Shown here: positions 39,996 to 64,000 of the stretch, in pieces
Position numbering within the stretch: the first letter of the stretch is position 1
How the letters are laid out: each line of letters starts with the position of its first letter
Assembly: GCA_964360815.1 (NCBI GenBank)
Contig: CAYHYA010000002.1
Location: forward strand, 1,371-65,370
DNA from: an uncultured Candidatus Saccharibacteria bacterium
GTDB lineage: Bacteria; Patescibacteriota; Minisyncoccia; Phycocordibacterales; JACOZG01
Direction: 5' to 3'
DNA: 64,000 nucleotides
Position numbers and translations under genes: made by a program
The notes under the pieces: model-generated
The model's database searches: none
Told to the model about the DNA's origin: nothing
Seen by the model: only the letters and a program-made list of their open reading frames with translations

Positions 39996-41781
39996 TGTTT
40001 TGTACCTCGTCGTTACTCTCATCGGCACAAAAATCTTCCAAAGTTTTAAATATTGGTTTAAAATTTTCGAAGGCTGATGGTCCAATTTTTATCGCTGCAT
40101 TTATTAACAGGTCTGTATCGCCTTTGGGGCAGATTTTCATTCCTCCTCCAGGAGTATTTTTTTCTTCAAAAAATTGTTCGAGACTGGTGACTCCATAAAA
40201 GAGGTGCTCCATCTCTAGTCTTGATTCACCCCCAAAATGATCTCCGGTCGCAGGGTTGATTACTTGCGCTTTTATTTTTGAATTATTTGATAATGGCAAT
40301 AATAATGCATAAAAATTACACTTCTTTTTTTTGAGAGTCAAACAGGTACCTATAGTATTTAACTTTTTTGTATAGTCATGATTAGTCAAACCATTCCATC
40401 TTTGAAAACCCTCTCCATCAAAATCAAATAATCCAAGAACGAATTGCTTTTCAAAAATCTCTGCATTTTCTAGTGCATAAGACACTCCTTGTGCATTGTT
40501 TTTCGCCTTTATTACGTAAGGATTAGATATACTTGGAAAAAGTAGCTTCCACGCTTCTTTTAGTACTCTTTCATCAGTTGGACCTTCAACGAACACAATC
40601 GGAGAATTTTCTAATTTTTTTAGATCTTCCAACTCCTGTGTTTGCTCATCTAGTTTTTTTATACTCAATGAGTAGTTTTTTTGAACCTCAAGAAATGATC
40701 CGTAGTTATAACCAAACACTTTTTCAAGATTGTTTGATTCGCTTATTTTATTAAAAATCGTATTCCCGGGTTTATCTTGATTTGAAATAAAAATAGAGTA
40801 GGCCTCGGGATTGTTTTGAGGGAATATGAAAGATGGTGAATGCGTAGAAAGAAAAATTTGTGCAGCTTTAGAATATTCGACAAATTTTACAAATAAATTA
40901 TCCGCTCTTAATGCTTCAAGCGCGTTCTCTGGCTCATCAATTCCCCAAATCCAATGATCGTCTTTTGCTTTCCTCGCCAACCAACCCAAAACTACTGGCA
41001 CAAAAAGACTTTTTATACCCTCGCCACGAGACGTGAATTTAATCTTATAGTCGTCTCTACTGCCACGAGTAATTGTCTCGGGCGTATCCTCAAACTGACT
41101 GTTAACTTCAAGACTTGACCAAAATGATTCCAAAGAAATGGGCAGAGTAACAGATGTATCCACTCCAGTAATATCCTGAAAATCCTTTGAAAAATCTTTT
41201 GTGGTCTTATCGATATTGGCATCGAGCTCGTCCTTTGCAGTAGTACTTAAAAACAACCCTTTGTTTCTGGCAGATAATTTCAAAATATATGAAAAAACCT
41301 CAGTACTCTTAAAAGCTGGAATATAAACAAATTTGATTGATTTCAGAAAAACAGAAAAAGATCTTTTTATTCCTTGGGAGGCTGTTCCTATATAATCGGG
41401 CTCTGTTTGTTCGTAGGTCTCAGTATAAGCCCACCACCTACGCTCAACCCATAAATCACCATTCTGATTGATGAGTTTTACAAGCTCATTCTTATTCCCC
41501 TTTATCTCATTTACATCAAAATAAATCTTGATGGATATAAACTGTCTTCCCTTTTTGCTCTCACGAGCTTTTACTTTCGATGACATTGAGAAATCATCAA
41601 AAAAGTTGAACTCCTCTAGAAACGAGGTCTGCCCATTGAAGAAGAGATTTAATGCTCTTAGGACATTTGATTTACCACTATCATTTTGGCCGCCGAATAT
41701 CACTATGTGATTCAGCTCTTCTATGGATTGATCAAAAATGGAGCGAAAATGCTTTATTTCAATTTTTTTAATTATTTTCAT
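39985..41781 (-). CDS. OLD-family (ABC-ATPase + Toprim) nuclease; alternatively GajA-like or fused PARIS AriA-AriB-like defense protein
   Basis: N-terminal Walker A FGGQNDSGKSNVLRAL of AAA_15/21 ABC ATPases. C-terminal Toprim signatures IVFVEGPTDERVL (invariant E) and LGLFDFDGEG (DxD). 598 aa, class 1 OLD size. ATGA start/stop overlap with hsdM. Confidence 0.55.
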   Translation of the reverse strand: MKIIKKIEIKHFRSIFDQSIEELNHIVIFGGQNDSGKSNVLRALNLFFNGQTSFLEEFNFFDDFSMSSKVKARESKKGRQFISIKIYFDVNEIKGNKNELVKLINQNGDLWVERRWWAYTETYEQTEPDYIGTASQGIKRSFSVFLKSIKFVYIPAFKSTEVFSYILKLSARNKGLFLSTTAKDELDANIDKTTKDFSKDFQDITGVDTSVTLPISLESFWSSLEVNSQFEDTPETITRGSRDDYKIKFTSRGEGIKSLFVPVVLGWLARKAKDDHWIWGIDEPENALEALRADNLFVKFVEYSKAAQIFLSTHSPSFIFPQNNPEAYSIFISNQDKPGNTIFNKISESNNLEKVFGYNYGSFLEVQKNYSLSIKKLDEQTQELEDLKKLENSPIVFVEGPTDERVLKEAWKLLFPSISNPYVIKAKNNAQGVSYALENAEIFEKQFVLGLFDFDGEGFQRWNGLTNHDYTKKLNTIGTCLTLKKKKCNFYALLLPLSNNSKIKAQVINPATGDHFGGESRLEMEHLFYGVTSLEQFFEEKNTPGGGMKICPKGDTDLLINAAIKIGPSAFENFKPIFKTLEDFCADESNDEVQNNEN

Positions 41782-43259
41782 AGCAATTTTTGAATACCAG
41801 TTAAACTGCTCTTGATTTCTGTATCAAGTTTTTGCATTTCGGAGATGATTTCTTCCGGTGTACGCAACGCAGTTTCATCCTTTTTGTTAGGATTCTTTAC
41901 TGATAAATCAAAAGTCTCTTGATCAACACTTGAGACATCAATACTCCATGAGTTATCACTCTCTGCTTTCGTCTTTTGTAGTTTTACGAATTCAGATAAG
42001 TCCGCCTCGTTCAGAGGATTACCTTTGCCTAGATTTCGACCAAGATTGAGCTGGTAGAACCACACCTTTTTTGTAGGTTTTCCTCCCGACGCTGCGGTCG
42101 GGACAGGTTTCTCAAAGAACAGCACCGCTGTCTTCACTCCTGCACCAGCAAACACTCCTCCAGGCAGATCGAGGACTGTGTGTAAATTACAACTCTCAAG
42201 AAGCAATTTGCGAAGACTTATCGAAGCATTGTCTGTGTTTGATAGAAATGTGTTCTTGATAACAATACCTGCTCTACCACCAGCCTTGAGAATCTTTATA
42301 AAGTGTTGAAGAAAAAGAAAAGCTGTCTCACCAGTCTTAATGGGAAAATTCTGCTGAATCTCTCGCCCTATGCCTGCTCCAAAAGGGGGGTTTGCCAAAA
42401 TTACGTTATAACGATCCTTTTCCTGAATGTCGTTGATGTTCTGTGCGAGCGTATCTGTGTGTCTGATGTTTGGCGCCTCAATACCATGTAGGATCATGTT
42501 CATTATGCCGATGATGTAGGCGAGGGATTTTATTTCCTTTCCGTAGAAAGTTTTATTCTGTAGTGTTGCCATTTGTGCCGATGACAGCTTGGCTTGATTT
42601 TGAGTAAGAAAATTATATGACTCCACTAAGAATCCTGCGGAGCCGCACGCGCCGTCATAGATCGTCTCGCCAATTGTCGGTGCTACCACTTTGACGATCG
42701 TTTTAATCAAAGGGCGTGGGGTGTAGTATTCGCCACCATTCCTGCCCGCATTTCCCATGTTCTTGATCTTGTTCTCATAGAGATGCGACAGCTCGTGCTT
42801 CTCCTCATACTTTCGGAAATGCATTGCGTCCACAACGTTCAGGATATCTCGAAGCTTGTAGCCACTGACTATTTTATTTTTTAGCTCGCTGAAGATCTCA
42901 CCGATTTTATATTCGATAGTGTTCGCATCCGCATCAGGATTCTTAAACTTCTTCAGATACGGAAATAACTTCTGATTCACGAAGTCATTCAGGTCGTCCT
43001 CAGTCATTGTTTTGTGGTGATCTATTTTTCCGTCTTTCCCTTTAGGGCACGCCCACGCATCCCAGCGGTATTGCGGATCAAGAATGTAATTGTATTTCTT
43101 GCCAGCAAGTTGAGCTTCAGTCTTCTTTATCTCATCCAAATCATCTAGATACTTCAAAAAAAGAATCCACGATGTCTGTTCTACATAATCTAGTTCCGTT
43201 GCTGAACCAGAATCTGTATGAAGAATGTTGTCTATATTTTTGAATGAGTTTTCAAACAT
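41778..43259 (-). CDS. hsdM: Type I restriction-modification N6-adenine DNA methyltransferase subunit (HsdM)
   Basis: HsdM N-terminal domain, AdoMet motif I (DGACGSAGFL), catalytic NPPFG motif IV; 493 aa. Confidence 0.88.
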   Translation of the reverse strand: MFENSFKNIDNILHTDSGSATELDYVEQTSWILFLKYLDDLDEIKKTEAQLAGKKYNYILDPQYRWDAWACPKGKDGKIDHHKTMTEDDLNDFVNQKLFPYLKKFKNPDADANTIEYKIGEIFSELKNKIVSGYKLRDILNVVDAMHFRKYEEKHELSHLYENKIKNMGNAGRNGGEYYTPRPLIKTIVKVVAPTIGETIYDGACGSAGFLVESYNFLTQNQAKLSSAQMATLQNKTFYGKEIKSLAYIIGIMNMILHGIEAPNIRHTDTLAQNINDIQEKDRYNVILANPPFGAGIGREIQQNFPIKTGETAFLFLQHFIKILKAGGRAGIVIKNTFLSNTDNASISLRKLLLESCNLHTVLDLPGGVFAGAGVKTAVLFFEKPVPTAASGGKPTKKVWFYQLNLGRNLGKGNPLNEADLSEFVKLQKTKAESDNSWSIDVSSVDQETFDLSVKNPNKKDETALRTPEEIISEMQKLDTEIKSSLTGIQKLL

Positions 43260-50182: not shown

Positions 50183-52116
50183 TCACCTTAATTTGGTGTA
50201 CACATTTACATTTGTCAGATTGGTGTCGGCGGTGGTGTATTTGGTTAGATAACTTTCATAACGTGGATCGGCGAGACGAGCGTAGCCCGTGCCCCACGGC
50301 ACCTGATTTTGGAGGAAATCGCCGTTTTCATTAGTTTGCGATGCGGTGGCGGGATTAACTCCGACTACCGTCACGTCGGCGAGAATACTCCCGTCAACAG
50401 ATTTTACTTTACCGGCGACCGATCCATTGGTATAAACACTAGCAACGTCACTCACCTTAACCCTGGAGATGCCCCCGCCGCTGAAAAAATAAGTGTTGCC
50501 AGACTGATCAGAGGTGCCGAGCGTGGCTTCGTAAACAACGTTGTTCACAAGACCCCCGACCGTGGCGCTTGAGGTTGTGGTTGTGGCACTCACATTTGCC
50601 CCCGACCAACTACTACTACCTTCAAGCCGCCACATGAGCACAATTTTATTAAGATTGGGGTCAAACTTAATTGGCCAGCGCCAGGTAATCGCTGGGGCAC
50701 CGGCACTGGAGACATTCTTGTAACCGACATAATAAAGCGGCAAGCCGGGATGATGGCTTGGATCAGCCAGGTAAATAAATGCTTCTTCGTAATTTGAGTT
50801 AGCATAAATTACGCCATTTTCTCCCTCAATAAACACTTTGAGGGCGACATCGCCTTGGAAATTTCTCGTGTTACTTATCCCTAACGCCAGATCAACGGTC
50901 GAACCGGCATTAACGACGATTTGATTCTGTTCAAAATCAAACGAGGCCAGATGATAATCATCAATAATGAGATGTAGGGCCCCGCGATCAATGGCCACCG
51001 TTCCCGGATTGACCAGGCGGACATTAAAAGTGCTGACCGCTCCCGTTTGCAAACTAGAAGTTGGGGTAATGTCGGTGATAAGCAACTCGTTTGCGCCAAG
51101 ACCAACCGAGAGCGCGGTGACAACTTTGGCCGTAAGATAAACGTTATCATCAAAGCTTCCATTCTTTTTTTGTTTGTCCTCGAAGTAGGTGATGGTTTCC
51201 GCTGGATAAATCGGATTCGCCGTGGCGGCTTTGATCGCGTGGTGGGCCAGCACGGTGTCTAAAAGATTGTTACCCCAAGTGCCGTTTGGTTTCTGGGTGT
51301 TGATTAAAGAAGTCACGGCTGGATCAAGCGTGTCGTCCACGGCAATTTTACCGAGCAGGCGATGCTTCCACGGAAGCAGGGCCTCGATAACCTCACTGGT
51401 TACCGGCAACATGCTCGCGCCGTCTGCCAACACACTCCAGCCGTGGCCGGGTCGTTCCATATTGATGAGATAATGCAAACCGAGCGAAGCGGTGACATTT
51501 GGTTCCTCGCCTCGTCTCGATAATTGGCGGCGTGAAGGGCCTGGAGTGCCTTGGCTGTGGTTAATGGGTCGGATTCATAATCACGATTGAAGCTGAAGCC
51601 GCCCGTCGCCTCGTCGAGACCGCGAGCTAAATCTTCGGCGGTTGAAGTACTAACACCGGCTCGCGCCCACACTGCCAACTGCTCGGCCAAATAATCATTA
51701 TTTTCAGGAATATAATATTCCAACCAGTCGAGACCGCGATCGAGAACCGCGGCGGTGACGCCGCGCGCTTGCAAGGCCTCGAGCGCGGCGACGGTGGTAA
51801 TAAACTTAGTGGGCACATTACTCCCCCATGAGCCATCTTTGTTTTGTTCACCAACAAGATATTCAACCGCCCGATCGATAATCACCGAAACCGCCGGAAC
51901 GCCCCGCGCCCGACTAGACGGCTTGATCTCTATCACCTTAAGACCCAAGATTTTGGCCACCGGCTCGGCCGGTGTTAGTTTGGCTGGATTTAATACCTGG
52001 GCAGTGTTGGCATTTATCACGACCGGTTCAACCATCGCGCTCTCGGCAATGGCGAGTGGCAAATAAAAAAACCAAGCGGCAACTCCCACCACCCAAAACC
52101 CAGTGAGTATCTTCAT
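50183..52116 (-). pseudogene. Secreted QW-repeat (prenyltransferase/terpene-cyclase-like alpha-toroid) protein with C-terminal beta domain, interrupted by a frameshift near 51470-51490
   Basis: Two ORFs (51400..52116 with signal peptide and EQNKDGSWGSN repeat; 50183..51478 with QKPNGTWGNN and KQKKNGSFDDN repeats) overlap by 79 nt in different frames. The downstream frame stays open upstream of its TTG. Same repeat family on both sides implies one gene. Confidence 0.55.
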
Positions 52117-52605: not shown

Positions 52606-52726
52606 TGGTATTTCTCCAGAAAAGGTTGGTTTTTCGGTATTAGCCAGACTATCTAGCTTCTATTTTGATTGTACACCCAACGCCACACACTTGTCAAGCG
52701 GTCAAGACGAGTTGAAAAATATGGCT

Positions 52727-54421
52727 TTAATTTGGGGTATTTGGGAGTATTTCTATAGAATTAATAACCTTGTCGGTATCCTGCCATCTCTCCAAAGTAT
52801 TTTGATAAAGCAATCCTTTTATTTCTGCTTTCTTTTCGTCGGGCATAGAGATTAGGAAATAATTAGAATCGTCAAAAAGTTTTTCTATTTTCAGGGTTTT
52901 TGAATTATTGATCGGGATAAAAACGGTTTCTTGGCCACAACCCTCGACTCCAGAGTAAAAAGTGACGCCAGCTTGAGATTTAAATTTTTCTTCATCAATT
53001 AGTGCGTCCTTTTCCATGGTCTTAATCGCTTCTCTTAAACCGGTGTCGAGATACTCTATGGAGAGATAGAAATCCGTTAATTCACCTAGTGGGATAACGG
53101 GTCCGGGGCCCTCCCCACAATATCTAGGGACAATGAGAGAAATAGAATGTTTTAGTTCTATTAATTTATCCGATTCTGTAATTGAAATTGCCGTAGATGG
53201 ATATGAAAATTTAATTCCAAGATTTTTGCTTTCATATGTTGGCCATGCCTGGGAATATATTAGTTCTCCTCCTTCATAATTTCCGTCACACTCCCATTTG
53301 GCAGTATACTTCTGCAATATTAATTGACGATCTATGAGTTTGTATACTCCAGTTGTCCAGCAATCTCCCAACCCCCGACCCTTCGTTGCAGACACAAAAA
53401 CATCTTTTACGGAATCATAAAACATTTCAACAACTCTATAGTTAAAAATTGACTCACCTTCTCTGTTTATTTCTTCGACGAGAAGAGGGGTATAAGTTTT
53501 TCCGTCATCTAATACGACCATGTAAGAGTATTGATAGGCGTGGGCCATACAGAACAAGATCAACACCTTGGTGCCATCGGGCATGATTTTCTCTGGTTTA
53601 ATCGCCTGAACAAATGATCGAAACGGTAATTCGTCAGGAATCCCCGTCATTTCATATGGATAACACTCTTCTTTGTACTGAGCCGCTAACGGTGCCCACC
53701 TCGGATCAGAAGCGGCCAAACTTAAATCTTCTTTAAAATTTTTTTCCTTTTCTTGTTGTTCCAATTGGTTTTCAGAAATTAAAGTATCGTCTATGAGTAT
53801 ATAATTGTGGTTAGATAGGTAATCTTTTTCTTTACGAGACATGGTGATAATTCCTTCTTTATATTCCACAAAATCAATGTCTGACCAGTTATCTTCATTG
53901 TTAATAAATTTAATTGGCACCAGTAACCCCCCTACTTCACGTAGAATTTGATAGGAACTAAAACCTTTTTCATTCTTCGTTCGAATTAACGCTTCGCTGA
54001 CCCCATCTCCGCTTATATCTTTTTGAAAAATATTTGTTTCAAAAGCTTCGGTACTGTTTTGAACCTTCTGTGCCGACTTGATCACAATGACAGGTTCGGG
54101 ATGTAAGCCAATCGAAAAAAATTGATAGATACTTCTTTCTTTTGGTTTGTTTTCAACGACTAGAAAGAATGGGGTATTGCCGATCTTTATTTCTTTCGCA
54201 TAGAAGTCGTACTCGAACGATTCATGATTTCCGAAACTATAATGATAATTACCAGGGAGGGTTTTTATTCTAAAATAAGGATAGATGGCTCTCAGGATTG
54301 GTGGGGCAGAATATTTTAATATCGCTTCCCTGTAACCAATGACCACAACGACCACAACCAAAACCGTCCCTAAAATTATAATTAAACGCTTCTTGTATTT
54401 TGAATTCTGACTTCTCAACAT
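52727..54421 (-). CDS. Membrane-anchored FG-GAP-like repeat protein, paralog 1 (long form)
   Basis: N-terminal TM (LIIILGTVLVVVVVVIGY) and DISGDGVSEALI Ca-binding-type DxxxDGxxE repeat. Shares family with four downstream paralogs. Start set at internal ATG after the upstream gene stop. Confidence 0.55.
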   Translation of the reverse strand: MLRSQNSKYKKRLIIILGTVLVVVVVVIGYREAILKYSAPPILRAIYPYFRIKTLPGNYHYSFGNHESFEYDFYAKEIKIGNTPFFLVVENKPKERSIYQFFSIGLHPEPVIVIKSAQKVQNSTEAFETNIFQKDISGDGVSEALIRTKNEKGFSSYQILREVGGLLVPIKFINNEDNWSDIDFVEYKEGIITMSRKEKDYLSNHNYILIDDTLISENQLEQQEKEKNFKEDLSLAASDPRWAPLAAQYKEECYPYEMTGIPDELPFRSFVQAIKPEKIMPDGTKVLILFCMAHAYQYSYMVVLDDGKTYTPLLVEEINREGESIFNYRVVEMFYDSVKDVFVSATKGRGLGDCWTTGVYKLIDRQLILQKYTAKWECDGNYEGGELIYSQAWPTYESKNLGIKFSYPSTAISITESDKLIELKHSISLIVPRYCGEGPGPVIPLGELTDFYLSIEYLDTGLREAIKTMEKDALIDEEKFKSQAGVTFYSGVEGCGQETVFIPINNSKTLKIEKLFDDSNYFLISMPDEKKAEIKGLLYQNTLERWQDTDKVINSIEILPNTPN

Positions 54422-54431
54422 CTTCTTATTT

Positions 54432-55316
54432 TTATTTGAACAACTCCTTAAATTCTGGTGATGTTTCTGCCACCTCTTTCCAGAGGTAGTATTCGACACC
54501 GCTCCATTTATAGATTTGAGTGTATCGCCCCTTACCCACCATGTCTGGAGAGGTTGGAATAAGACCGAGGTTTTCTAAAGCGGGATCAATGATTATGACT
54601 TCCAAGATTCCATCACCATCTTTATCTTGAAACAAATCAGGAAATTTATCATAGCGTTTCATTAAAAAATAAAATCTATTCCATGAAGTTACATCTGAAT
54701 CTGTGTGCTCAAAATTAAAATCTCTGGTTGAATCTTTTTTCTTACCGACAATCGGATTTAGCACTTTGTATGTTTTGATTTTTGGATCAAGAGATATTAT
54801 CCAAAACTCTTTATCGTTGTATTCTTCCTCTATGTTTCTATACAGAGCACCTCCCTCCGAATATATGACCAACTCTTTTAGTCCATCGTTGTTTATATCC
54901 CTGACCTCTTTTATAAGTTGTTCCGGCTTCCATAAAAAAGGAGAGTTTATTTCCCAATAGATATAGTACTGGTTATTGGTTAGGTGTTTTAACATAATAA
55001 TTCCGCCTTTTTCTCCATAATCATCGGCCTTATAAACTCCAATGGTTACTCTTGTAGGTGGATTATTGTCGTCCAAAAGATATGTTTGGTTCTTTTCATA
55101 AAAATCACGTTTGGTTTCGGTCATACTTTTTAAGAGACGGTATCTATTACTACGTTTCTCTGGTGGTATATTTGAAAGATCAACAATTCTATTAGTAAAA
55201 GTATTAACTTCGACCGGTGTCAGTGTCTTGTTGTTTATTTGGTATATAAATATCCCGACTATTATAATCAAAACTGTCGCTTGGGCTATTTCGTATATTA
55301 ATTTTTTATTTTTCAT
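54432..55316 (-). CDS. Membrane-anchored FG-GAP-like repeat protein, paralog 2 (carries conserved YYLWKEVAETSPEFKELFK tail)
   Basis: N-terminal TM. RDINNDGLKELVIY and DKDGDGILEVII repeats. 3'-terminal 57 nt near-identical to paralogs 4 and 5. Confidence 0.6.
   Translation of the reverse strand: MKNKKLIYEIAQATVLIIIVGIFIYQINNKTLTPVEVNTFTNRIVDLSNIPPEKRSNRYRLLKSMTETKRDFYEKNQTYLLDDNNPPTRVTIGVYKADDYGEKGGIIMLKHLTNNQYYIYWEINSPFLWKPEQLIKEVRDINNDGLKELVIYSEGGALYRNIEEEYNDKEFWIISLDPKIKTYKVLNPIVGKKKDSTRDFNFEHTDSDVTSWNRFYFLMKRYDKFPDLFQDKDGDGILEVIIIDPALENLGLIPTSPDMVGKGRYTQIYKWSGVEYYLWKEVAETSPEFKELFK
54439..54495. repeat. 57-nt conserved segment (3' end of FG-GAP paralog 2), copy 1 of 3
   Basis: aacaactccttaaattctggtgatgtttctgccacctctttccagaggtagtattcg; 3 variable positions among copies at 54439, 56418 and 59741. 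Confidence 0.8.
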
Positions 55317-55324
55317 TTTCGGTA

Positions 55325-55595
55325 TCACTGGTCCTGTTCATGATATGTCCCGCATACATTATTTGCATACTGAATCGTTGATGGAGCTCTGCCATTATAA
55401 TAACGAACAGCCCACCACAAACGATCTTTATCATTATCTAATAATTGAGTTACCCCTTGCCACAACAAAGTATTGTTATTATAGTCCTGTTTTAAAGCTT
55501 CGACCCAATTACTGCCGTAGGTGCTGATAAAATATTGGTTATTGTACGGTTCAACCTTAATAAAATTCCGATGAACGCATAGATTTTCTTGCTGT
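55325..55595 (-). pseudogene. Start-less remnant of a lysozyme-like (SLT/GH23-like) C-terminal cassette
   Basis: Open frame beginning immediately after the stop of paralog 3, with no start codon. Translation ...QYFISTYGSNW...RYYNGRAPSTIQYANNVCGTYH aligns with the ...SSYGLMQ...LLQYNRDPQYAIDVYKIY end of the orphan cassette at 57195..58166. Confidence 0.4.
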
Positions 55596-55610
55596 GTGAG
55601 CTATGCATGG

Positions 55611-56390
55611 TTATGGAGGATACAACACGTTGCCAACCGAATACTGATCTTCCCCTGTGGATGGAGTGAGGGAATCTTTTTGTTCTCTCCAAAGAAAATA
55701 TTTTGAACCATCCCATTTATAGGCCCGATAGACTTTCTTATTGATCACATCAAGCCGATTTTCTGCTAATCCAAGAAAAATGTTGTAGGGTTGAACAATT
55801 TCTGGAATACCGTCTTTGTCCACATCAAAAATTTTCGTCATGCTTTCCTCGCCACCAAAACCTACATAGTTGGATTCTTTTCCGTCTGGTCTTATGTGTA
55901 TGAGATATGGGGTAATCATATCAAAACCGTCACTATTCCATTTGTAGATATACAGGGTTTCGCCCTTGTCATTATCCCATAGAGCAAGGATCTCGTTTAC
56001 ACCATCACCAGTAAGATCAGACACGCCCACCTTTGATCTTGGGTCAGAAATATCTTCTGTGCTTTCCCATATAAGTTTTATTTTTTCAAATTCTTTTTCC
56101 TCAAAAACCAATATTCCTTGCTGGTGGTGGGTAATAATAAGATTCTTTGCCCCAGTTTTAGTTAAAGAAAATCTCTGGTAATCTTTCCCTTTCGTAGCAA
56201 TCACGTGGTCAATCCGATTTTGTCTGTCTATTGGGTAATATAGTTCAGGTTCTCCCACCACGGGGGTGAACATGGCCGTAGAGGTTGCTGTGTCTTGCAC
56301 GTCTGGTTTTCTTGAATCAAACAAAAAATATAGACCAGCACCCAAGAGAATTATTATTCCCCACGATACGGCTATTTTGATTTTTGACAT
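55611..56390 (-). CDS. Membrane-anchored FG-GAP-like repeat protein, paralog 3
   Basis: N-terminal TM. SDLTGDGVNEILAL and FDVDKDGIPEIVQ repeats. Diverged C-terminus KYFLWREQKDS... Confidence 0.55.
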   Translation of the reverse strand: MSKIKIAVSWGIIILLGAGLYFLFDSRKPDVQDTATSTAMFTPVVGEPELYYPIDRQNRIDHVIATKGKDYQRFSLTKTGAKNLIITHHQQGILVFEEKEFEKIKLIWESTEDISDPRSKVGVSDLTGDGVNEILALWDNDKGETLYIYKWNSDGFDMITPYLIHIRPDGKESNYVGFGGEESMTKIFDVDKDGIPEIVQPYNIFLGLAENRLDVINKKVYRAYKWDGSKYFLWREQKDSLTPSTGEDQYSVGNVLYPP

Positions 56391-56410
56391 GTTATTTTTT
56401 TACTCAATAA

Positions 56411-57211
56411 TCACCTAAACAACTCCTTAAATTCTGGTGATGTTTCTGCCACCTCTTTCCAGAGATAGTATTCGGAGCCGTTGAATTTGAAAACACTGGC
56501 GGACTGATGAATATCTTCGTAATCACCACTTTCATTTAGTGTAAGAACCTCTAAATTGCCATCATTTTCAAGATCAATGAATTTAACATCGGTGCCTGCC
56601 ATCCAACGATCGGATTCAGTCTCGGCCCCTGGATTTGGATTTATTAATTTAAATTCATCGTTATTCCATTGATAAATCCAGAATGTGGGAACAAGACGCA
56701 CTCCTTGCCACGCAATAAGCACGAGTTCATCAATTCCATCATTATTAATATCTTTGAATTCAGTGGTGCCCTTCATTGCTGAAAAATATTCTTTGCTTTC
56801 CCAAATAATTGAAAAGTGGTTATCCTTTTTTATAAAAACCAGTATGCCTCCTCTGTATGTTCCGCGTTCATCTTCGGGATGATTAGAATCTTGTCTCGAC
56901 TTATTTATGACCGTATCAGGACTATTCGGCATATAATAAACTGCGTACTTTTTTTCGCCATTTAATGTCGGGACTTTACTTGAAGAAAAAGCTGAATTAT
57001 ATTCAGAAAGGGGAACGGATTCTATGTAATTTAGCATATACTGTCTGGGGTGTTGCCAGTAGGACTTCTCGTCAAAACTGACCGACCAATGATTATTTGG
57101 AATTTCGGTTATCTCCTGTTTTACTTTAGTTAAGTAAAAAATCACCGCGATTATACAAAAAACAATAATAACAGCGGTCATACTTTTTCTCTTGTTAATC
57201 ATATATGCCAC
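56411..57211 (-). CDS. Membrane-anchored FG-GAP-like repeat protein, paralog 4 (conserved tail ...EYYLWKEVAETSPEFKELFR)
   Basis: N-terminal TM. FKDINNDGIDELVL and FIDLENDGNLEVLT repeats. Conserved 57-nt 3' end. Confidence 0.6.
   Translation of the reverse strand: MAYMINKRKSMTAVIIVFCIIAVIFYLTKVKQEITEIPNNHWSVSFDEKSYWQHPRQYMLNYIESVPLSEYNSAFSSSKVPTLNGEKKYAVYYMPNSPDTVINKSRQDSNHPEDERGTYRGGILVFIKKDNHFSIIWESKEYFSAMKGTTEFKDINNDGIDELVLIAWQGVRLVPTFWIYQWNNDEFKLINPNPGAETESDRWMAGTDVKFIDLENDGNLEVLTLNESGDYEDIHQSASVFKFNGSEYYLWKEVAETSPEFKELFR
56418..56474. repeat. 57-nt conserved segment, copy 2 (3' end of FG-GAP paralog 4)
   Basis: Near-identical to copies at 54439 and 59741, including synonymous positions. 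Confidence 0.8.
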
Positions 57212-58477
57212 TTAAATAAATTTTATAAACATCAATTGCATACTGCGGGTCACGATTGTACTGGAGGAGTGCCTCTTTTATTTTTTGTTCGTACGACCAG
57301 GCAGGATGTTGATTTTCAGCGACTCCATAGTAAAAGTTCAAGGTATGTACCCCCACTTTAATGTTTACGGATGGAATAAACAAATCTTCGACGGGTCTAG
57401 CCGGACTGGAGACGTCCTCGAAACCATTCCATCTAGCGGTCTCATAGAGTATTTGCATCAAACCATAACTAGAAGCCAGAATTAACTGGGCGGTATAGTT
57501 TAGATTGGGAGGTAAAGAGGTCCAATCGCGATTTGGGTTAGCCTTAACTATCTCTTGGGCGGTAGGATTAGAATTTGTGTTCGCAATATTGAGTTTAGGG
57601 AACGCATCTTCACGATGCCTCATAAAAATACTTGTGCTCATGTCCGACACTTGATCCCCATTTATAAAAGTTTCTCCTGGGACATTATGCCCTCCGAGTC
57701 GCCAGTGTTTTTCCGGAAACCCATGCAATCCACGCCAACCTTGCTCTTGTGGCAGCGTAGAATCAAGTTTTGAATACCAATTGTAATCAGTATGAATTTC
57801 ATATCTTATGGCTTTTGGTTTGAAATTACTCTCTTTTTTGATCACCGCCTTTATCAGGGCGGCGGGAATATCTTTTGTCGCGTTATCCATGATAATACCA
57901 TCAACATCATTGTTATTTCCCCTATCTCCCAGCGTGGTCTCTTCTATTCGCACCCCGACGCTAGCGTTCGTGCCGTAACCGGACCGAAGTAAGATGGGGC
58001 CGGTGACTTGGTCGAGCGGCGGGCGATCCGTTCTCACAATACCAGTTTCGTCCCACTCATGAATCGTGGTACCGGCGAGAGTGGAAGTATAGCGCGCGTG
58101 CCAATTTATAGATTGTCCGCGGATAAATGACTGATTTTTATTCGGCAAAATAATGTTGGCTATCAAATTCGGAAGAAGATGCTGCCGCCAAAAATTCTCC
58201 CAACCGTTCGGCCATTCTTCGACCGTATAGCCACCGTTCAGACCCTCACCAATAGCGTACGTCGCATCACCACCGGCAAAGTCAATGGCGAGATAAAATA
58301 AACCTTGCCAGTCGTTATAAGTGAGCGGCGCCGTCGGCGTGTAAATAATTTTACCGGCGGCGACGGCGTTATGGAAAGCGGTTTTGAGGGCTGATGAAAT
58401 AACCAGAGAATCGATCTCGCTATCATTCGCGGCGGTAATCTTTTTAGAATCGCCAAAAAGTTTTTCTATTCCGATTT
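57195..58477 (-). other. Promoter-less, start-less orphan C-terminal cassette: 503-bp segment identical to the large gene followed by an alternative lysozyme-like (SLT/GH23-like) C-terminal domain
   Basis: Frame is open from the TAA at about 58478 through 57195 with no ATG/GTG in the first about 110 codons. Residues ...KITAANDSEIDS...GTNASVGVRI are nucleotide-identical to 61309..61811. Downstream domain has IKAVIKKESNFKPKA (ES motif), SSYGLMQILYETA and YNRDPQY motifs. Confidence 0.6.
57944..58446. repeat. 503-bp direct repeat, copy B (identical to 61309..61811)
   Basis: Base-by-base comparison in the window. Identity starts at ...cgcaccccgacgctagcg and ends at ...cggcggtaatcttttta in both copies (offset 3365 bp). 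Confidence 0.85.
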
Positions 58478-59005
58478 AAATTTTTTGATCAAGTTTTCCT
58501 TTATGGCATATAGTTCATTACTTTTCTCTCTATCTTTCTCGGTATTATTGTCACAAAGTTCTTCATTAACTATCTGATTGTTGTTTCTGTAGGAAAAAGA
58601 GACAAAACTTGTGCAATTGGGATGGCTTATATCCCATATCTTCATTGCTATCTCATGTTCTGTTGTTATAGCAGAAAACGGCTTAATAGAGTATTCGAAG
58701 CTTAGTATAAATTCACTATTCACCATATCAAAAACATACTCATGTGATATGAGTGGTGGGTTAGGGTTAAAATCGTGAACAATTAAAAGACAAGTATTAA
58801 GTTTCGGACTATACCTGACAATTTTGTACTCCTTAGTGTTGGATAAACCTTTTTTATCATATAATTCATTGCACAAAATTGCCTGACGTATTAAATTGTT
58901 TTTTGGCAAGTAAAAAATAAAATAATAACTTAGGCCAATACCACTTAAGAAAATTCCCAGTACCATTAGAGAATAAACAAACTTTTTTATATTTAAATAA
59001 TTCAT
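58466..59005 (-). CDS. Hypothetical small membrane protein, very AT-rich
   Basis: 179 aa, N-terminal TM (LMVLGIFLSGIGLSYYFIFYL); about 30 % GC. Confidence 0.4.
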   Translation of the reverse strand: MNYLNIKKFVYSLMVLGIFLSGIGLSYYFIFYLPKNNLIRQAILCNELYDKKGLSNTKEYKIVRYSPKLNTCLLIVHDFNPNPPLISHEYVFDMVNSEFILSFEYSIKPFSAITTEHEIAMKIWDISHPNCTSFVSFSYRNNNQIVNEELCDNNTEKDREKSNELYAIKENLIKKFKSE

Positions 59006-59038
59006 GTTTAGGTTGGGTAATTAGTGAAAAACATGATC

Positions 59039-59710
59039 TCAATCCAATAATGACTTGATGTTTTCAATAGCAGTTCTCACAACTATATCTCTAAACTCAT
59101 CATAGGTTATTTTGAGGCTGAGAGCAATTTGGCGCTTTTTGTATGGTTTTCCTAAATATCCGAAGGTCATAAAACTCCAACTATTATAACCTTGATTCTC
59201 AAATTCGTTTTTCTGTTTTTTATCAAGGAAGCTAAAACTAAAATAATCTTCTCCGTGAACTGCTTTATTTCTTACTTCATAAAGTATCTTAATAATTGAA
59301 GAAAAAAGGAGTGTATGATGTCCTGGTTTTGTTAATGCTCTTTGGAAATCACACATCATTATTTTCTTGTCTTCAGGGAGAACAAGATCAAAAAATTTCT
59401 TTAGAGATTCAGAGGACTTAATCTTATTAATTCCAATCCGTTGTTTAGCAATAGATTCCGCTAAAGCCACCAAAAAAATAATTTTAAGAGCAGGTCTGTT
59501 GTTTCTCACTTTTTCCTGATCATCAGCTATTTGTGTATACCATTGAGCACAAAGAAGCATTCTACGAGTTTTTAATTTCCTTAAGCAATTTTTTATAAAA
59601 TCAGTCCTTTTGAATACTTCAGGAAAAACTATCTCTAAAAAAGTATTTAGTTCTGGATCCTCTAAAATGTCCTGTTTAATTTGGTTATCTAGTTTTTTCC
59701 AATCATTCAT
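59039..59710 (-). CDS. Hypothetical cytoplasmic protein with Rx4H (HEPN-like) motif, very AT-rich
   Basis: 223 aa. EVRNKAVHGEDY matches the HEPN Rx4-6H signature; otherwise no motif. Confidence 0.35.
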   Translation of the reverse strand: MNDWKKLDNQIKQDILEDPELNTFLEIVFPEVFKRTDFIKNCLRKLKTRRMLLCAQWYTQIADDQEKVRNNRPALKIIFLVALAESIAKQRIGINKIKSSESLKKFFDLVLPEDKKIMMCDFQRALTKPGHHTLLFSSIIKILYEVRNKAVHGEDYFSFSFLDKKQKNEFENQGYNSWSFMTFGYLGKPYKKRQIALSLKITYDEFRDIVVRTAIENIKSLLD

Positions 59711-59733
59711 TTTGTTTTTAAAAAATAATTAAA

Positions 59734-60489
59734 CTACTTAAACAACTCCTTAAATTCTGGCGATGTTTCTGCCACCTCTTTCCAAAGATAGTATTCGGTG
59801 CCGTTGAATTTATAAATAAACACCAGTGCTTTTTCGTTTTCATCTCTATAACCAACAGCAATTTCCTGGATTTTGTCATCATCAATATCTCTAATATAAG
59901 CAAGTTCGGCATCGCCAACCAAAATAGTCCATCCGTATTTAATTTTTATTGAAGATACTGTTGATTCTTGAATTTCAATTGGTGTAATAATTTTGAATTT
60001 ATCACTCGTAAATTTATAGACATAGAAGGCACCACTTCTTCCTGTCACTCCTAGATCTCCGGCCCAAACAATTTCATCAATTCCATCGTTGTCAATGTCT
60101 AAAAAACTCACATATGGACTATCGATGTAATCTTCACTTTCCCAGAATAAGACGGGTTGGTTGTTGACAAGCTTAAATACAAGAATTCCACCAAACATCC
60201 GTCCAGGTTTATTGTTTAATGAACCATCAAGTCGGTATGTTTCGCTGTATCCAGTTAATAAGTATGTTTCGCCATTAATTTTTGTTGTTCTTAATTTGTC
60301 AGGATGTTCCATCGCATCCTGTATCGCTATCTCTCTATTACTTAATTCTTCTTTTTCTATTATTGGTTGGGGAATATTGTCGGGATCCTTAATGGTTGGA
60401 GAGACTTGTGAGTGATTAAAAAATATCAAAACTAATAAAATTATAATTCCGCCGGCGTAAATAATATTTTTGAGTGTTAGATATTTCAT
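59734..60489 (-). CDS. Membrane-anchored FG-GAP-like repeat protein, paralog 5 (conserved tail ...EYYLWKEVAETSPEFKELFK), immediately downstream of the large effector-like gene
   Basis: N-terminal TM. FLDIDNDGIDEIVW and IRDIDDDKIQEIAV repeats. Conserved 57-nt 3' end. Start set at internal ATG (MKYLTLKN...) to avoid overlap with the upstream gene. Confidence 0.6.
   Translation of the reverse strand: MKYLTLKNIIYAGGIIILLVLIFFNHSQVSPTIKDPDNIPQPIIEKEELSNREIAIQDAMEHPDKLRTTKINGETYLLTGYSETYRLDGSLNNKPGRMFGGILVFKLVNNQPVLFWESEDYIDSPYVSFLDIDNDGIDEIVWAGDLGVTGRSGAFYVYKFTSDKFKIITPIEIQESTVSSIKIKYGWTILVGDAELAYIRDIDDDKIQEIAVGYRDENEKALVFIYKFNGTEYYLWKEVAETSPEFKELFK
59741..59797. repeat. 57-nt conserved segment, copy 3 (3' end of FG-GAP paralog 5)
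   Basis: Near-identical to copies at 54439 and 56418. Confidence 0.8.
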
Positions 60490-60493
60490 ATGA

Positions 60494-63400
60494 TTATTTA
60501 TAATTACTCGTATAAATTCGACATACATCTGGTCTATACAGTGGGCCAGAATTATAACGCCTCAAGGCTTCACTCCACCCAGCACAATTATCATTGGGGA
60601 CGAGCTGTCCACCACTCCTAATAAATTTACTTTTCAAAATAGCGGCCGCCGCCTCTACACCCAACTCGACATCATCAACAAGACTGTGGGGACTATGATA
60701 GTCTTTCATAACCAAATTACCTTCTGGATCCTCCACTTCGGTTGCTTCGGCATACATCACATGACCCAATCCATAACTGGAAGAGATCAAGAATTGAGGT
60801 GTGAAATTACCGGTAAAGCCCGCAGGGTTACCAAAAGCTGGCCAACCTTGGCTCGTACGTCCGTTATCAATATCGCGGTCGTTCGCATAAAGTTCGGCTA
60901 CAGTAATGGGAATTTTATCATGGGGTGTTCGATCCGTCATTATAATTCCTCGATATTGCCAGCCCCCGTTTCTTGTATTCTTAAGAGTGGTGCGATAATC
61001 TCTCGGTAAAGAACTCACTCGTGGTCCATCCAAAAGGGTTGACCCTTGGGAGTTTTTCCCAGCCAGAACGTAGTAAGAAAATGGTAAATTATCCATACCA
61101 ATTGATGGATTGGGACCTGAAAAATTTTCATAATCCCTCTTGGGTTCATAACGAGAGGTTCTGGGATCAAATATTCTATCTGTTTGCGTTTCTTTGTGAA
61201 TAATTGCCTTAAGTATTCCAGGGGGAATACCATATTTGTTAGCATTATTAGTAATTTCTACATCATACATGTTGTATACATTTCCAATCTTCATCTCTTC
61301 ATCCTCAACTATCCGCACCCCGACGCTAGCGTTCGTGCCGTAACCGGACCGAAGTAAGATGGGGCCGGTGACTTGGTCGAGCGGCGGGCGATCCGTTCTC
61401 ACAATACCAGTTTCGTCCCACTCATGAATCGTGGTACCGGCGAGAGTGGAAGTATAGCGCGCGTGCCAATTTATAGATTGTCCGCGGATAAATGACTGAT
61501 TTTTATTCGGCAAAATAATGTTGGCTATCAAATTCGGAAGAAGATGCTGCCGCCAAAAATTCTCCCAACCGTTCGGCCATTCTTCGACCGTATAGCCACC
61601 GTTCAGACCCTCACCAATAGCGTACGTCGCATCACCACCGGCAAAGTCAATGGCGAGATAAAATAAACCTTGCCAGTCGTTATAAGTGAGCGGCGCCGTC
61701 GGCGTGTAAATAATTTTACCGGCGGCGACGGCGTTATGGAAAGCGGTTTTGAGGGCTGATGAAATAACCAGAGAATCGATCTCGCTATCATTCGCGGCGG
61801 TAATCTTTTTAAGCGTTACGCCCGGAAACTCGCCGGCCGCGACCAGCTTCAAGCCCTTCACCGTGGCCACCGCTTCAACGTCAAAATCATTTTCAAAAAT
61901 ATCGGACTCGTCTTGGGAGGCCTGAAGACCGAACAACGCCGCAAATTCTTCAAGATGAGCGTTGGCCTCTTCGTCGAAACGATTGAAATATCGCACCTTG
62001 GCAAAAGAATCTATGCGTAAACCTTGCCAGTCGAAAGAATAGGGTTCGCTCTCATCAAACACCACTTCGAGCCCGTTAGACACCGTGGCTCGAGTGGCGG
62101 TGTGGGTGAAAGCGCCACCGATGATGTCGGTGAGTTCCTGTTGCGTTTCGGCTAGTCGGTATAAATAATCCACGGCCGTCCGATAAAGTTTCTGATCTCT
62201 CACCAAGCTCGTACTGCCGCCGTCTTCGGCCGATCTTTGATCGGGCGATACCACCCGGTCAGTATTGAAGGCGAGCGCGTCCGTACTGCCGGCAATAATT
62301 TTCTGCTCGTGCGTGGCGGGAATTTCCGTCCTCATGTCACCCTCTTCATCTCGAACCGGAACGGCAAACTCTATCGAATACGACTCCGCGCGGCCGAGCG
62401 TGGAGGCGGCGCGGCCGAGAGCCACGACTCGACCGTTGATTTTCAGGGTTGGTTTAACCTCAACTAGCGCGAGTGGCACAACGTCATAGATGGTGTCAAA
62501 ACTATCAATGATCGTCTGGTCTTCAGGTGTCGCCGGATCGTGAGTCACTAATATCTCGTTATCAGCTAGATCAGAAACATAGGCCCGGTGATCAAGGATT
62601 ACATTTTCTTGCTCGTTTTTGATGGTGAATCTGATCGAATGACGGAAGGGAGTCGGAACGTAGGCGTCAACACCTAAAACGGTAACGATTTTATACGGCA
62701 ACGAGCCGGGAATAAAATCAAGATTTTGCAATTTAGGATATGAACGCGTCAGTGCTTCGGTATAGGTTAAGTCAGGATAATACTCCGGGCGAGCCGAGGT
62801 GAGAGATAGTTCTACTTCTCTTTTGAATGCTTCTAGTGGTTCCAGATCGCCGTAGTCGCCCGCAAGATAACGATCAAAAAATTCTTCCGTGATAAAACCC
62901 TGGCCCTTCAGGTGTTCGACGACATCAATAAAACGCTCGTAATAATATGCATTGATGCTCGGCTCTAGTGGCACCCACTGGGCGATGCCGCCGTCATTCG
63001 GATCAGCTCCGCGACTGTAGCCGTAGGGTATATGCGCCTCGACATAAGTATGTTCAACCACGAAAAAATACGGTTCGTCATTGAGAGTGTAAAGGGTGTA
63101 GGGAATTTTTTCGAGTGACAGAATCCGAGCGGCGGCAATGGGCGAGTCAACGCCCAACCAATCAGTCATCGTTCTCAAGTTAACTTTGATGTCGGCGCGA
63201 CGATAACGAGCCGGGACCCCGCTCGAGCGAAGCATGGCCACCAGCAACGAGGCTTTGTCCATGTCGTTGCCCGCCCGCTCGAGCAGGGTGGCATGAGCCC
63301 CCTTCTTTGATCCAAAATACGGCACGTGGCTAACTTCGTTTCGGACAAAATTGAGCATTGCAAGCGGATCGTGGTTAAGCTCGTCAGCTTTGTTTTGAAT

Positions 63401-63898
63401 GGCTGGCGTAAATTTGATCTCATCGCCTTCCCCGAGATAATTGAGCGGATCACCGACCGAATCGATTGGCCGAGCTGATGAATTTACCATGCTTTCTGTT
63501 TCTTGAAACACGGCCACCGGCCTCGTGTTGATTCGGCCGGAAAAAGTTTCGACTCTAAACGGCTCCTGTTCAGTGAGCCGGCCGATGGTCGGTTGAACCG
63601 GAACTTTTTTCTGACGGGCGCTTGGCTGGCGCGCTTCATACGCATTAAGCCGATCAAGGGCCACCGACGGCAGATGGCTAGCCAAAAGATGTTGCCTAAC
63701 CGCCGCGAGTTGTGCTGCCTTAGAGAGGTTGGGATTTTTCTTGAATTTGGCATTGCCACCGACAGTCTGTGAAGATGAAATATTTTTAATTACCGGGTTC
63801 TCAATCAGGGGCAAGGCCTCCATCACGGGGGCCACCGGTGTTAGAGCAAACGAAAAAAGCAAAAGGGCTGACGGAATCTTTATGTCTAATCCCCTCAT
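60494..63898 (-). CDS. Large secreted multidomain protein: transglutaminase-like fold (Cys replaced) plus C-terminal lysozyme-like (SLT/GH23-like) domain, putative peptidoglycan-targeting effector
   Basis: Probable signal peptide MRGLDIKIPSALLLFSFALTPVAPVMEA (start chosen at 63898; an upstream in-frame ATG at 63988 exists near the window edge). ATLLERAGNDMDKASLLVAMLRSSGVPARY resembles the transglutaminase-like core with Cys replaced by Asp. C-terminal IPPGILKAIIHKETQ...SSSYGLGHVMYAEA...YNSGPLY parallels SLT motifs. Confidence 0.6.
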   Translation of the reverse strand: MRGLDIKIPSALLLFSFALTPVAPVMEALPLIENPVIKNISSSQTVGGNAKFKKNPNLSKAAQLAAVRQHLLASHLPSVALDRLNAYEARQPSARQKKVPVQPTIGRLTEQEPFRVETFSGRINTRPVAVFQETESMVNSSARPIDSVGDPLNYLGEGDEIKFTPAIQNKADELNHDPLAMLNFVRNEVSHVPYFGSKKGAHATLLERAGNDMDKASLLVAMLRSSGVPARYRRADIKVNLRTMTDWLGVDSPIAAARILSLEKIPYTLYTLNDEPYFFVVEHTYVEAHIPYGYSRGADPNDGGIAQWVPLEPSINAYYYERFIDVVEHLKGQGFITEEFFDRYLAGDYGDLEPLEAFKREVELSLTSARPEYYPDLTYTEALTRSYPKLQNLDFIPGSLPYKIVTVLGVDAYVPTPFRHSIRFTIKNEQENVILDHRAYVSDLADNEILVTHDPATPEDQTIIDSFDTIYDVVPLALVEVKPTLKINGRVVALGRAASTLGRAESYSIEFAVPVRDEEGDMRTEIPATHEQKIIAGSTDALAFNTDRVVSPDQRSAEDGGSTSLVRDQKLYRTAVDYLYRLAETQQELTDIIGGAFTHTATRATVSNGLEVVFDESEPYSFDWQGLRIDSFAKVRYFNRFDEEANAHLEEFAALFGLQASQDESDIFENDFDVEAVATVKGLKLVAAGEFPGVTLKKITAANDSEIDSLVISSALKTAFHNAVAAGKIIYTPTAPLTYNDWQGLFYLAIDFAGGDATYAIGEGLNGGYTVEEWPNGWENFWRQHLLPNLIANIILPNKNQSFIRGQSINWHARYTSTLAGTTIHEWDETGIVRTDRPPLDQVTGPILLRSGYGTNASVGVRIVEDEEMKIGNVYNMYDVEITNNANKYGIPPGILKAIIHKETQTDRIFDPRTSRYEPKRDYENFSGPNPSIGMDNLPFSYYVLAGKNSQGSTLLDGPRVSSLPRDYRTTLKNTRNGGWQYRGIIMTDRTPHDKIPITVAELYANDRDIDNGRTSQGWPAFGNPAGFTGNFTPQFLISSSYGLGHVMYAEATEVEDPEGNLVMKDYHSPHSLVDDVELGVEAAAAILKSKFIRSGGQLVPNDNCAGWSEALRRYNSGPLYRPDVCRIYTSNYK
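61309..61811. repeat. 503-bp direct repeat, copy A (inside the large gene, at the trunk/C-terminal-domain junction)
   Basis: Identical to 57944..58446. Confidence 0.85.
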
Positions 63899-64000
63899 TC
63901 GTGTTCGCTTTGGATGCGGCCCCAGAGGGTGCGGAGTTCGTTGATCGCCATTCCCCCCTCGTCTTTGTTTGGCGGTTTGCCGTGCCACTCATAACGCCGT

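Follow-up and report, generated by a model that had tools for sequence, protein, structure and literature searches.

Three highly diverged genes of a polymorphic-toxin array in an uncultured Patescibacteria genome were found to end in almost the same 57 nucleotides (nt), and the synonymous states of this terminal block, here called the tail, were specific to the genome in which it occurs. These comparisons of sequence support homogenisation of the tail within each genome by homologous recombination or gene conversion, that is, concerted evolution, beyond what conservation of the protein would give. The array lies in a 64,000-nt stretch (the window, to which all positions refer) of a Candidatus Saccharibacteria metagenome-assembled genome (MAG; GCA_964360815.1, contig CAYHYA010000002.1, positions 1,371 to 65,370), for which matching database records name Hainich groundwater. 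It consists of a main toxin gene followed by an orphan cassette and decaying older cassettes. The tail-bearing genes, P2, P4 and P5, encode FG-GAP-like proteins that are presumed to give immunity to the SLT-like toxin domains encoded beside them.

The tail block in three diverged genes

The three 57-mers are located on the minus strand at 54439-54495, 56418-56474 and 59741-59797 and read CGAATACTAYCTYTGGAAAGAGGTGGCAGAAACATCRCCAGAATTTAAGGAGTTGTT. In their alignment 54 of the 57 positions were invariant and the three variable ones were all synonymous third positions, in agreement with the initial annotation of this DNA. For all further comparisons the tail was framed as the last 20 sense codons (EYYLWKEVAETSPEFKELF[KR]) and differences were counted per 60 nt; by this count the window tails differed pairwise at 3-5 positions and were 91-95% identical. 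No further copy was detected in the 64-kb window at up to three mismatches, the low-GC islands included, and shuffled sequence is expected to contain 0.

The remainder of these genes, already described as highly diverged, was only 28-34% identical in amino acids between the three tail bearers. Nucleotide identity in 57-nt segments of the gene bodies was ~20-60%, and the proportion of synonymous differences (pS) among the window paralogues was saturated at 0.70-0.78. The tail stood out as a discrete block of 57-81 nt at 91-98% identity, compared to 20-60% elsewhere in the genes. The stop codons that follow the three tails differ (TAA, TGA and TAG) and the sequences further downstream are unrelated, so that the homology ends there. 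Two neighbouring genes that had been reported to be without the tail do lack it. The first of them encodes a DUF1176 protein and the other is P3 (55611-56390), which ends in ...YFLWREQKDSLTPSTGEDQYSVGNVLYPP.

Two parts can be distinguished in the encoded block. The heptapeptide EYYLWKE is the last beta-strand of the domain and is kept throughout the FG-GAP-like family, and the 13 residues VAE[T/S]SPEFKELF[K/R] that follow are lineage-specific. The latter were modelled as a short helix, in which AlphaFold (AF2) was confident at residues 244-249 of P5.

Conservation of synonymous sites in the tail, another claim of the initial annotation, was evident from the codons. The same codon was used in all three genes at 14 of 18 degenerate codons, compared to 5.4 expected from local codon usage (P = 2.4e-6), with pairwise P values of 1.2e-4, 1.2e-4 and 0.016. 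The shared codons include several that are locally rare (GAG, GTG, AAG and TTG).

Tails group by genome and gene bodies by subfamily

Relatives of the locus were identified by two protein searches and two scans of DNA with degenerate (back-translated) patterns. One genome, MAG H51-bin050_1 (MAG B), carries the contigs L011 and L013 and bears two tails of its own. The number of tail differences and the amino acid identity of the gene bodies were as follows.

Window paralogues with each other: tail 3-5/60, body 28-34%
P2-like with P5-like gene of MAG B: tail 4/60, body 26%
Window P2 with its L013 orthologue (B_P2): tail 10/60, body 68%
Window P5 with its L004 orthologue: tail 11/60, body 79%
Window P4 with its L003 orthologue: tail 10/60, body 47%
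Window P5 with its L001 orthologue: tail 7/60, body 52%

The tails were thus grouped by genome and the bodies by subfamily. Across genomes, orthologue tails differed at 7-12 of 60 positions, with bodies 47-79% identical, compared to 3-5 of 60 among the paralogues of the window; gene conversion of the tail, as had been proposed, is supported by this difference. A private Y to S change (EYSLWKE) was common to both tails of MAG B. The window tails share the codons TAC, GCA, ACA and CCA, which are absent from all six foreign tails; three of these states are synonymous and one underlies the T/S difference. Between the window P5 and its L004 orthologue, pS was saturated in the tail (0.75), compared to a synonymous divergence (dS) of 0.60 in the body. 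Because selection at the protein level cannot produce genome-specific synonymous states, these point to homogenisation of the tail by homologous exchange.

Plain vertical descent of an ancestral constrained motif under codon bias, with no recombination, is highly improbable as an explanation. The family-wide conservation of EYYLWKE would agree with it, as would the AT-rich genes with their biased codons, in which codon identity at identical residues of the bodies was 0.36-0.58. Such a bias does not account for the excess of three-way codon identity given above, in which rare codons take part, and the tail tree contradicts the body tree. Furthermore, the 13-residue part is missing from the same subfamilies in other lineages.

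Distribution of the tail among relatives

The searches and pattern scans confined the 13-residue VAE[T/S]SPEFKELF[K/R] to a narrow set of groundwater contigs. The search for further copies recommended in the initial annotation did yield additional tails, in one narrow clade. Here the tail sits on four subfamilies: P2-like (L013), P4-like (L003), P5-like (L001/L008, L004 and L011) and a fourth type, represented by a 257-amino-acid gene of L010. Elsewhere in the Patescibacteria, members of these subfamilies have short ends that are unrelated to it. All tail copies are read in frame and stand at the very end of the protein. Of 185,579 species-representative genomes scanned, only MAG B was found to have the tail, in 2 copies, and the scan of metagenome contigs returned relatives of the locus only, together with 4 internal chance matches in unrelated proteins. 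A widespread C-terminal sorting signal, the case in which the initial annotation would have been abandoned, was therefore rejected, since both scans place the tail in one clade only. A P2-like start after the P4-type gene of L003 was not used; it is a lysine-rich stub of 20 codons and may be a chance similarity.

The restriction of the tail to paralogues that follow a toxin cassette turned out to be a local coincidence. In MAG B a P3-type gene without the tail stands directly after a full CT4 cassette (L011), and the tail-bearing genes of L010 and L011 come after a tail-less FG-GAP gene, although in L010 the upstream sequence is too short to show whether a toxin cassette precedes its two FG-GAP genes. 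In the window itself, the tail-less P3 is preceded by a vestige of CT4. The P2 orthologue of MAG B (P0021) follows a full-length CT3.

A constrained peptide and no sign of a nucleotide element

Among the nine tail copies, ~19 synonymous changes were counted against 7 replacement changes, most of them conservative, and the proportion of nonsynonymous differences (pN) was 0-0.06. This predominance of synonymous substitution identifies the tail as a constrained translated peptide. The 13 residues may accordingly be kept for a common role, such as docking to the constant part of the toxin or to a shared membrane partner, or stability of the fold, in which case recombination would only be the vehicle and a role as homology arm would be incidental. 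We regard this as a possible explanation that falls short of being probable. The strong purifying selection fits it well, as do the short helix with its high predicted local distance difference test score (pLDDT), the homology that stops exactly with the reading frame ahead of differing stop codons, and the position of each copy in frame at the very C-terminus. Most family members, however, are without the tail, including the P3-type gene after a full cassette, from which it follows that the tail is not needed for fold or immunity in general. Nor can selection on a peptide explain synonymous states that co-vary by genome, and any interaction partner is hypothetical.

The initial annotation also considered a function at the nucleotide level. 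A site for a site-specific recombinase (att-, dif- or attC-like), a small RNA, a terminator or a processing signal would be consistent with the conserved synonymous sites within the window and with a small hairpin, ACCUCU-GGAA-AGAGGU (6-8 bp), that was predicted in all three window copies. Between genomes, however, the synonymous positions of the tail vary freely (pS 0.56-0.75), and the hairpin is disrupted by a GAG to GAA change in other lineages. Tails folded with their flanks gave z-scores of -0.2 to -1.4. No terminator-like site was detected at the tails, and promoter and terminator counts in the scan were at the level of shuffled sequence. The tails had no Rfam match (E <= 1), and no recombinase gene or domain was found at the locus with Pfam and PADLOC. 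An RNA element or terminator was rejected on the fold z-scores, the terminator and promoter scan, the Rfam search and the broken hairpin, and a nucleotide-level element of any of these kinds is very unlikely.

A Shine-Dalgarno-like hexamer, AAGGAG, is present in the tail (54449-54454, 56428-56433 and 59751-59756, minus strand) and was invariant in 8 of 9 tails, which might also speak for a nucleotide signal. It is 22-35 nt away from the next start codon, too distant for ribosome binding, and was rejected as a ribosome-binding site.

Organisation of the toxin array

The array genes at 52727-63988 are all on the minus strand, as given by the list of open reading frames (ORFs). In the direction of transcription the features are the following, all on the minus strand.

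60494-63988, minus: main polymorphic toxin gene, a 1164-amino-acid ORF with an N-terminal transglutaminase-like core (Pfam Transglut_core, E 1.1e-7), a constant region and the variable C-terminal CT1
61310-61811, minus: 5′ homology arm, main-gene copy, encoding ...KKITAANDSEIDSL...GTNASVGVRI
60497-61309, minus: CT1, variable SLT-like C-terminal toxin domain, 27% identical to CT2 (E 9e-18)
59734-60489, minus: P5, FG-GAP-like presumed immunity gene for CT1, with an FG-GAP_3 match and an N-terminal transmembrane helix; identical to database protein P0001
59737-59796, minus: P5 tail block, 20 codons EYYLWKEVAETSPEFKELFK (57-mer at 59741-59797)
59039-59710, minus: ORF of 223 amino acids between module 1 and the orphan module, without family match
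58466-59005, minus: ORF of 179 amino acids with an N-terminal transmembrane segment, without family match
58444-58470, minus: 27-nt fragment at the 5′ edge of the orphan arm, equal to 52863-52889 (inside the DUF1176 gene) except for 1 nt
57945-58446, minus: orphan copy of the 5′ homology arm, ~502 nt long and differing from 61310-61811 at 1 position
57195-57944, minus: CT2, orphan SLT toxin domain (Pfam SLT, E 1.9e-10, 40.7 bits)
56411-57202, minus: P4, FG-GAP-like presumed immunity gene for CT2 (FG-GAP_3, 30.3 bits); matches P0016
56414-56473, minus: P4 tail block, …EYYLWKEVAETSPEFKELFR (57-mer at 56418-56474)
56400-56410, minus: 11 nt (TTATTGAGTAA) immediately behind the stop codon of P4, a vestige of a fourth toxin cassette, CT4, from its 3′ end
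55611-56390, minus: P3, FG-GAP-like gene of another subfamily with its own conserved C-terminal tail, without the 57-mer
55325-55558, minus: CT3 remnant of 234 nt, in which a third SLT-like toxin domain survives with its last ~72 codons (…LWWAVRYYNGRAPSTIQYANNVCGTYHEQDQ), 71.6% nt identity to L013
54432-55316, minus: P2, placed in the FG-GAP-like family by alignment and presumed to give immunity to CT3, without Pfam match
54435-54494, minus: P2 tail block, …EYYLWKEVAETSPEFKELFK (57-mer at 54439-54495)
52727-54421, minus: DUF1176 protein of 564 amino acids after the last tail (Pfam DUF1176, E 2.9e-12), called paralog 1 in the initial annotation and not a tail bearer

A repeat of 503 bp had been noted in this locus and corresponds to the two arm copies. 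These are identical through ...GVRI except for one mismatch (99.8% over ~502 nt), and beyond this point CT1 and CT2 are only 27% identical. The orphan copy is promoterless and runs into the different C-terminal domain CT2. The main and the orphan module are each flanked by arm and tail in the same order and orientation, and the immunity paralogues P2, P3, P4 and P5 sit within 6 kb. Pairs of a toxin domain and the small gene downstream of it recur in relatives: CT1-P5, CT2-P4 and CT3-P2 in L001, L004, L003 and L013, and CT4-P3 in L011. The ORFs of 223 and 179 amino acids had no Pfam or PADLOC match. No delivery module (RHS/YD repeats, TPS/FHA, LXG, PAAR and the like) was found, and the 1164-amino-acid protein gave only Transglut_core (Pfam, E <= 0.1).

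Homogenisation or chimeric joining of repeats by the assembler would be hardly credible as the source of the near-identical tails. Other assemblies of the same organism are indeed interrupted at the arm and close to where P2 begins, as an artefact might lead one to expect. The three copies, however, differ at fixed positions, two independent assemblies (L005 and L007) are 100% identical to the window over 2.2 and 2.7 kb, and the exact P5 protein is carried by L018 and L019 from two assemblies. A repeat of 57 nt is also shorter than what usual final k-mer problems need to alter bases.

The 27-nt fragment at the edge of the orphan arm encodes IEKLFGDS in frame with KKITAAND of the arm, to be compared with IEKLFDDS near the 3′ end of the DUF1176 gene. 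This suggests a scar that was left when the orphan cassette was displaced.

Junctions at the 3′ edge of the tail

When orthologous loci were compared to the window, nucleotide homology was lost at the stop codon of the tail or at most 11 nt past it in 4 of 4 comparisons. The description of the tail as the distal boundary of a module is therefore upheld, its 3′ edge coinciding with rearrangement junctions. L004, with a P5 orthologue, and L013, with a P2 orthologue, were identical at 75 of 75 positions from the stop codon on, into a DUF3298 gene, and at 48 of 60 positions in the tail, which shows that the tail is decoupled both from the gene body and from the downstream DNA. The gene that comes next is the same in both contigs and is joined, where the tail ends, to a P5-type gene in L004 and to one of P2 type in L013; no parent and derivative pair from one population was found.

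Decay of older cassettes is also visible in the array. Full-length CT3 is found in L013 (13668-14867) in front of the P2 orthologue, and the window keeps its last ~72 codons. The 11-nt vestige after P4 matches the last codons and the stop of CT4 together with the spacer before the P3-type gene in MAG B (L011, ~13890-13905), where CT4 is of full length.

The history of the tail may be depicted as follows. We infer, at a probability of roughly 0.6, that general RecA-type recombination acts on the one stretch of homology common to the diverged immunity genes, homogenises it within a genome and occasionally joins different modules to the same downstream DNA. Within one narrow clade the tail would have been grafted onto four or more immunity subfamilies that are deeply diverged. 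Recombination or gene conversion between the copies would then keep the tails nearly identical within each genome while the bodies evolve independently, and purifying selection would retain the tail peptide. Because these genes have no other stretch of homology in common, the tail would act as a recombination block at the distal edge of the module, and conversion tracts and rearrangements would consequently stop at the end of its reading frame. The main and the orphan module are bracketed by it and the 502-nt arm of the toxin gene. The higher identity of the arm (99.8% over 502 nt) relative to the tails (91-95% over 60 nt) would fit conversion that depends on the length of homology.

Several observations weigh against this explanation. 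The initial annotation expected dS to drop to about 0 in the tail only; among the window copies it was clearly lowered (0.21-0.74, with saturated bodies) but did not approach 0, and with ~11 synonymous sites per tail the estimates are noisy. At 91-95% identity and a dS of 0.2-0.7, conversion must have been infrequent, or old, relative to that of the 99.8% arm. The second genome is a two-contig bin in which co-residence of the tails rests on binning, coverage and the shared private variant. In the L004/L013 comparison, where L004 is a 1.1-kb contig from an unbinned genome, identity steps up from 80% to 100% where the tail ends and not inside it, which fits later conversion of the tail and equally a non-homologous junction. 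Neither a deletion nor a swap was seen directly as a recombinant intermediate, with both parental states occurring in one population. The loss of the arm and CT4 after P4, with its left breakpoint at the tail stop, looks like a microhomology deletion rather than recombination in the tail, and the CT4-P3 module works without a tail.

Replacement of CT1-P5 by CT2-P4 through both blocks is geometrically possible. A true two-ended cassette system, in which silent modules of toxin domain and immunity gene reach the expressed site by gene conversion or are exchanged among strains through transformation, is nevertheless unlikely; the genome-specific homogenisation of the tail would then be the footprint of repeated conversions. 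The tail may have been selected as a (second) homology arm for cassette exchange, or it may be a recombining by-product or a functional peptide.

Toxin and immunity protein families

The toxin domains are, judged by their sequences, lytic-transglycosylase-like. SLT (PF01464) scores were 40.7 bits for CT2 (cut-off 21.3) and 32.5 bits for the C-terminal domain of L011. CT1 itself had no Pfam match and is homologous to CT2 by alignment; a sequence search of the PDB with CT1 gave nothing informative. The catalytic E-S motif, expected in the region of the first helix, was read from the translations as KKES in CT2, HKET in CT1, LQES in CT4 and RIES in CT3.

All the FG-GAP-like genes of the array start with an N-terminal transmembrane helix, and P2, P3, P4 and P5 align as one family. 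With the gathering threshold of FG-GAP_3 (PF13517) at 26.9 bits, P5 (27.5) and P4 (30.3) scored above and P3 (24.7) below it, and P2 had no match. The AlphaFold model of P5 (mean pLDDT 85.7) displayed a domain of beta-sheet repeats that matched integrin-alpha FG-GAP propellers (E 1e-4) and, weakly, PDB entry 4QTQ (E 7e-3, template modelling score 0.41 on the target). The latter is XAC2610 (X-Tfi), the immunity protein of a Xanthomonas type IV secretion system peptidoglycan hydrolase effector (PMC10933484). Position, co-variation with the toxin domains and the resemblance to 4QTQ are the grounds on which the FG-GAP-like genes are presumed to give immunity to the SLT domains.

The P3 subfamily has a conserved C-terminal end of its own, of ~30 residues (KEQKxSFTPSTxEDEYSVxNIL; 55611-55700 in the window), which was found in many Patescibacteria including Taylorbacteria and Minisyncoccia MAGs (proteins P0020-P0035).

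Relation to known toxin-immunity arrays

A known process that reshuffles toxin-immunity arrays is exemplified anew by the finding, in a phylum and in protein families that are new to it. The closest likeness is to the T7SS (type VII secretion system) immunity paralogues esaG of Staphylococcus aureus and tipC of Streptococcus, in which homology blocks at the 5′ and 3′ ends drive recombination (Garrett et al. 2022, PMC9484751). There, as here, non-identical immunity genes are strung beside a polymorphic toxin, short blocks of high nucleotide similarity, one of them at the 3′ end of the gene, stand between variable regions, and blocks and variable parts have different phylogenies; in esaG and tipC, gain and loss of genes are explained by recombination through the blocks. 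The array described here differs by its occurrence in Patescibacteria, by an FG-GAP-like fold in place of DUF600 or TipC, and by an SLT-like toxin in place of a nuclease or lipid II phosphatase. It has a single block of ~60 nt in genes that are far more diverged (22-34% amino acid identity), and these are interleaved with toxin cassettes and do not form a pure immunity string. The signal, too, is genome-specific concerted evolution and not RDP-type mosaics.

A constant part with a variable C-terminal toxin is also found in the orphans of Rhs (rearrangement hotspot) and CDI (contact-dependent growth inhibition) systems and in the displaced effector/immunity arrays of Vibrio (Koskiniemi et al. 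2014, PMC3967940; Kirchberger et al. 2017, PMC5361080). Silent downstream cassettes keep a piece of the constant region, which here amounts to 502 nt with 1 mismatch, and old immunity genes are retained while toxins decay, as with the CT3 and CT4 remnants. For those systems homology has been reported from the 5′ (toxin) side alone, and illegitimate recombination was given as the origin of the 3′ junction (PMC3967940, PMC5361080), whereas the present locus has a second, 3′ block inside the immunity gene. Moreover, no type V, VI or VII secretion context was identified here. If the tail is indeed a second exchange arm, the usual one-armed model of orphan cassettes would be extended.

XAC2610 is an extracytoplasmic, calcium-binding inhibitor of beta-propeller type directed against a peptidoglycan glycohydrolase toxin (PMC10933484). 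The array genes match it weakly in structure only and have no detectable sequence relationship to it, and inhibition by them is presumed. A combination that the locus adds is that of an SLT-type toxin and a presumed immunity protein of FG-GAP type.

The bracketing of a module by two conserved blocks is shared with systems of antigenic variation. In pilE/pilS and in VSG expression sites, a variable segment is flanked on either side by conserved sequence that the expressed copy and the silent ones have in common. Switching of that kind was not observed here, the 3′ block is only 60 nt and one of three modules has lost its 5′ arm. Were the two-ended system true, a genome-reduced Patescibacteria cell could switch toxin and immunity as one unit, in the way that pathogens switch surface antigens.

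Bacteria of the Candidate Phyla Radiation cannot be grown or manipulated, and competition and recombination in their small genomes are known mostly by inference. The concerted evolution seen across otherwise unalignable genes is a demonstration, by sequence only, that homologous recombination is active on blocks of ~60 nt in such a genome. The toxin-immunity arrays of this lineage turn over like those of Firmicutes and Proteobacteria, with displaced cassettes, decaying toxins and retained immunity genes.

Additional observations on the locus and its relatives

The genes after the last tail vary between genomes. A DUF1176 protein is encoded there in the window (54421-52727) and a DUF3298 protein in L013 (11852-12808); the corresponding position in L010 is 2258-3028. 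A promoter-like TTGACA-18-TACAAT lies within a 46-nt stretch (52668-52713, minus strand) that is 91% conserved with L013 11119-11164; between this stretch and the last tail are DUF1176 in the window and DUF3298 with a 213-amino-acid gene in the related MAG. DUF3298 occurs in the lysozyme-binding anti-sigma factor RsiV, and the DUF1176 and DUF3298 genes may be further inhibitors of cell-wall hydrolases.

A similar array of SLT cassettes and FG-GAP genes was observed in a Liptonbacteria contig (L022). The 3′ end of two of its FG-GAP genes, with at least 30 nt of downstream sequence, is repeated exactly (2435-3125 and 7019-7862), an arm of 85 nt is 95% identical between the main and the orphan toxin (1377-1461 and 3125-3209), and three paralogues share …LWKEEK[I/L]K. 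Junction homology may thus be common in such loci.

The independent assemblies L005 and L007 of the same organism end at 58392, 57942 and 55272, which places one break at the 502-nt arm and another within the 5′ end of P2. The partial protein P0019 starts near 55240, close to the P2 break, which is not at a repeat; this second break may represent strain-level structural variation.

Further downstream, a 644-amino-acid protein of the related MAG (L013 7805-9739), with weak squalene-cyclase-like repeats, corresponds to two overlapping ORFs of the window, 51400-52116 and 50183-51478, the split being a frameshift, a pseudogene or an assembly error. Two low-GC islands are present in the window. The one at 36130-43259 contains a type I restriction-modification system (HsdR, HsdS and HsdM) that is broken by a RhuM/Fic gene and an AAA_15 ATPase, and the one at 17605-22161 encodes a histidine kinase, a GARS-like ATP-grasp protein and an EamA transporter.

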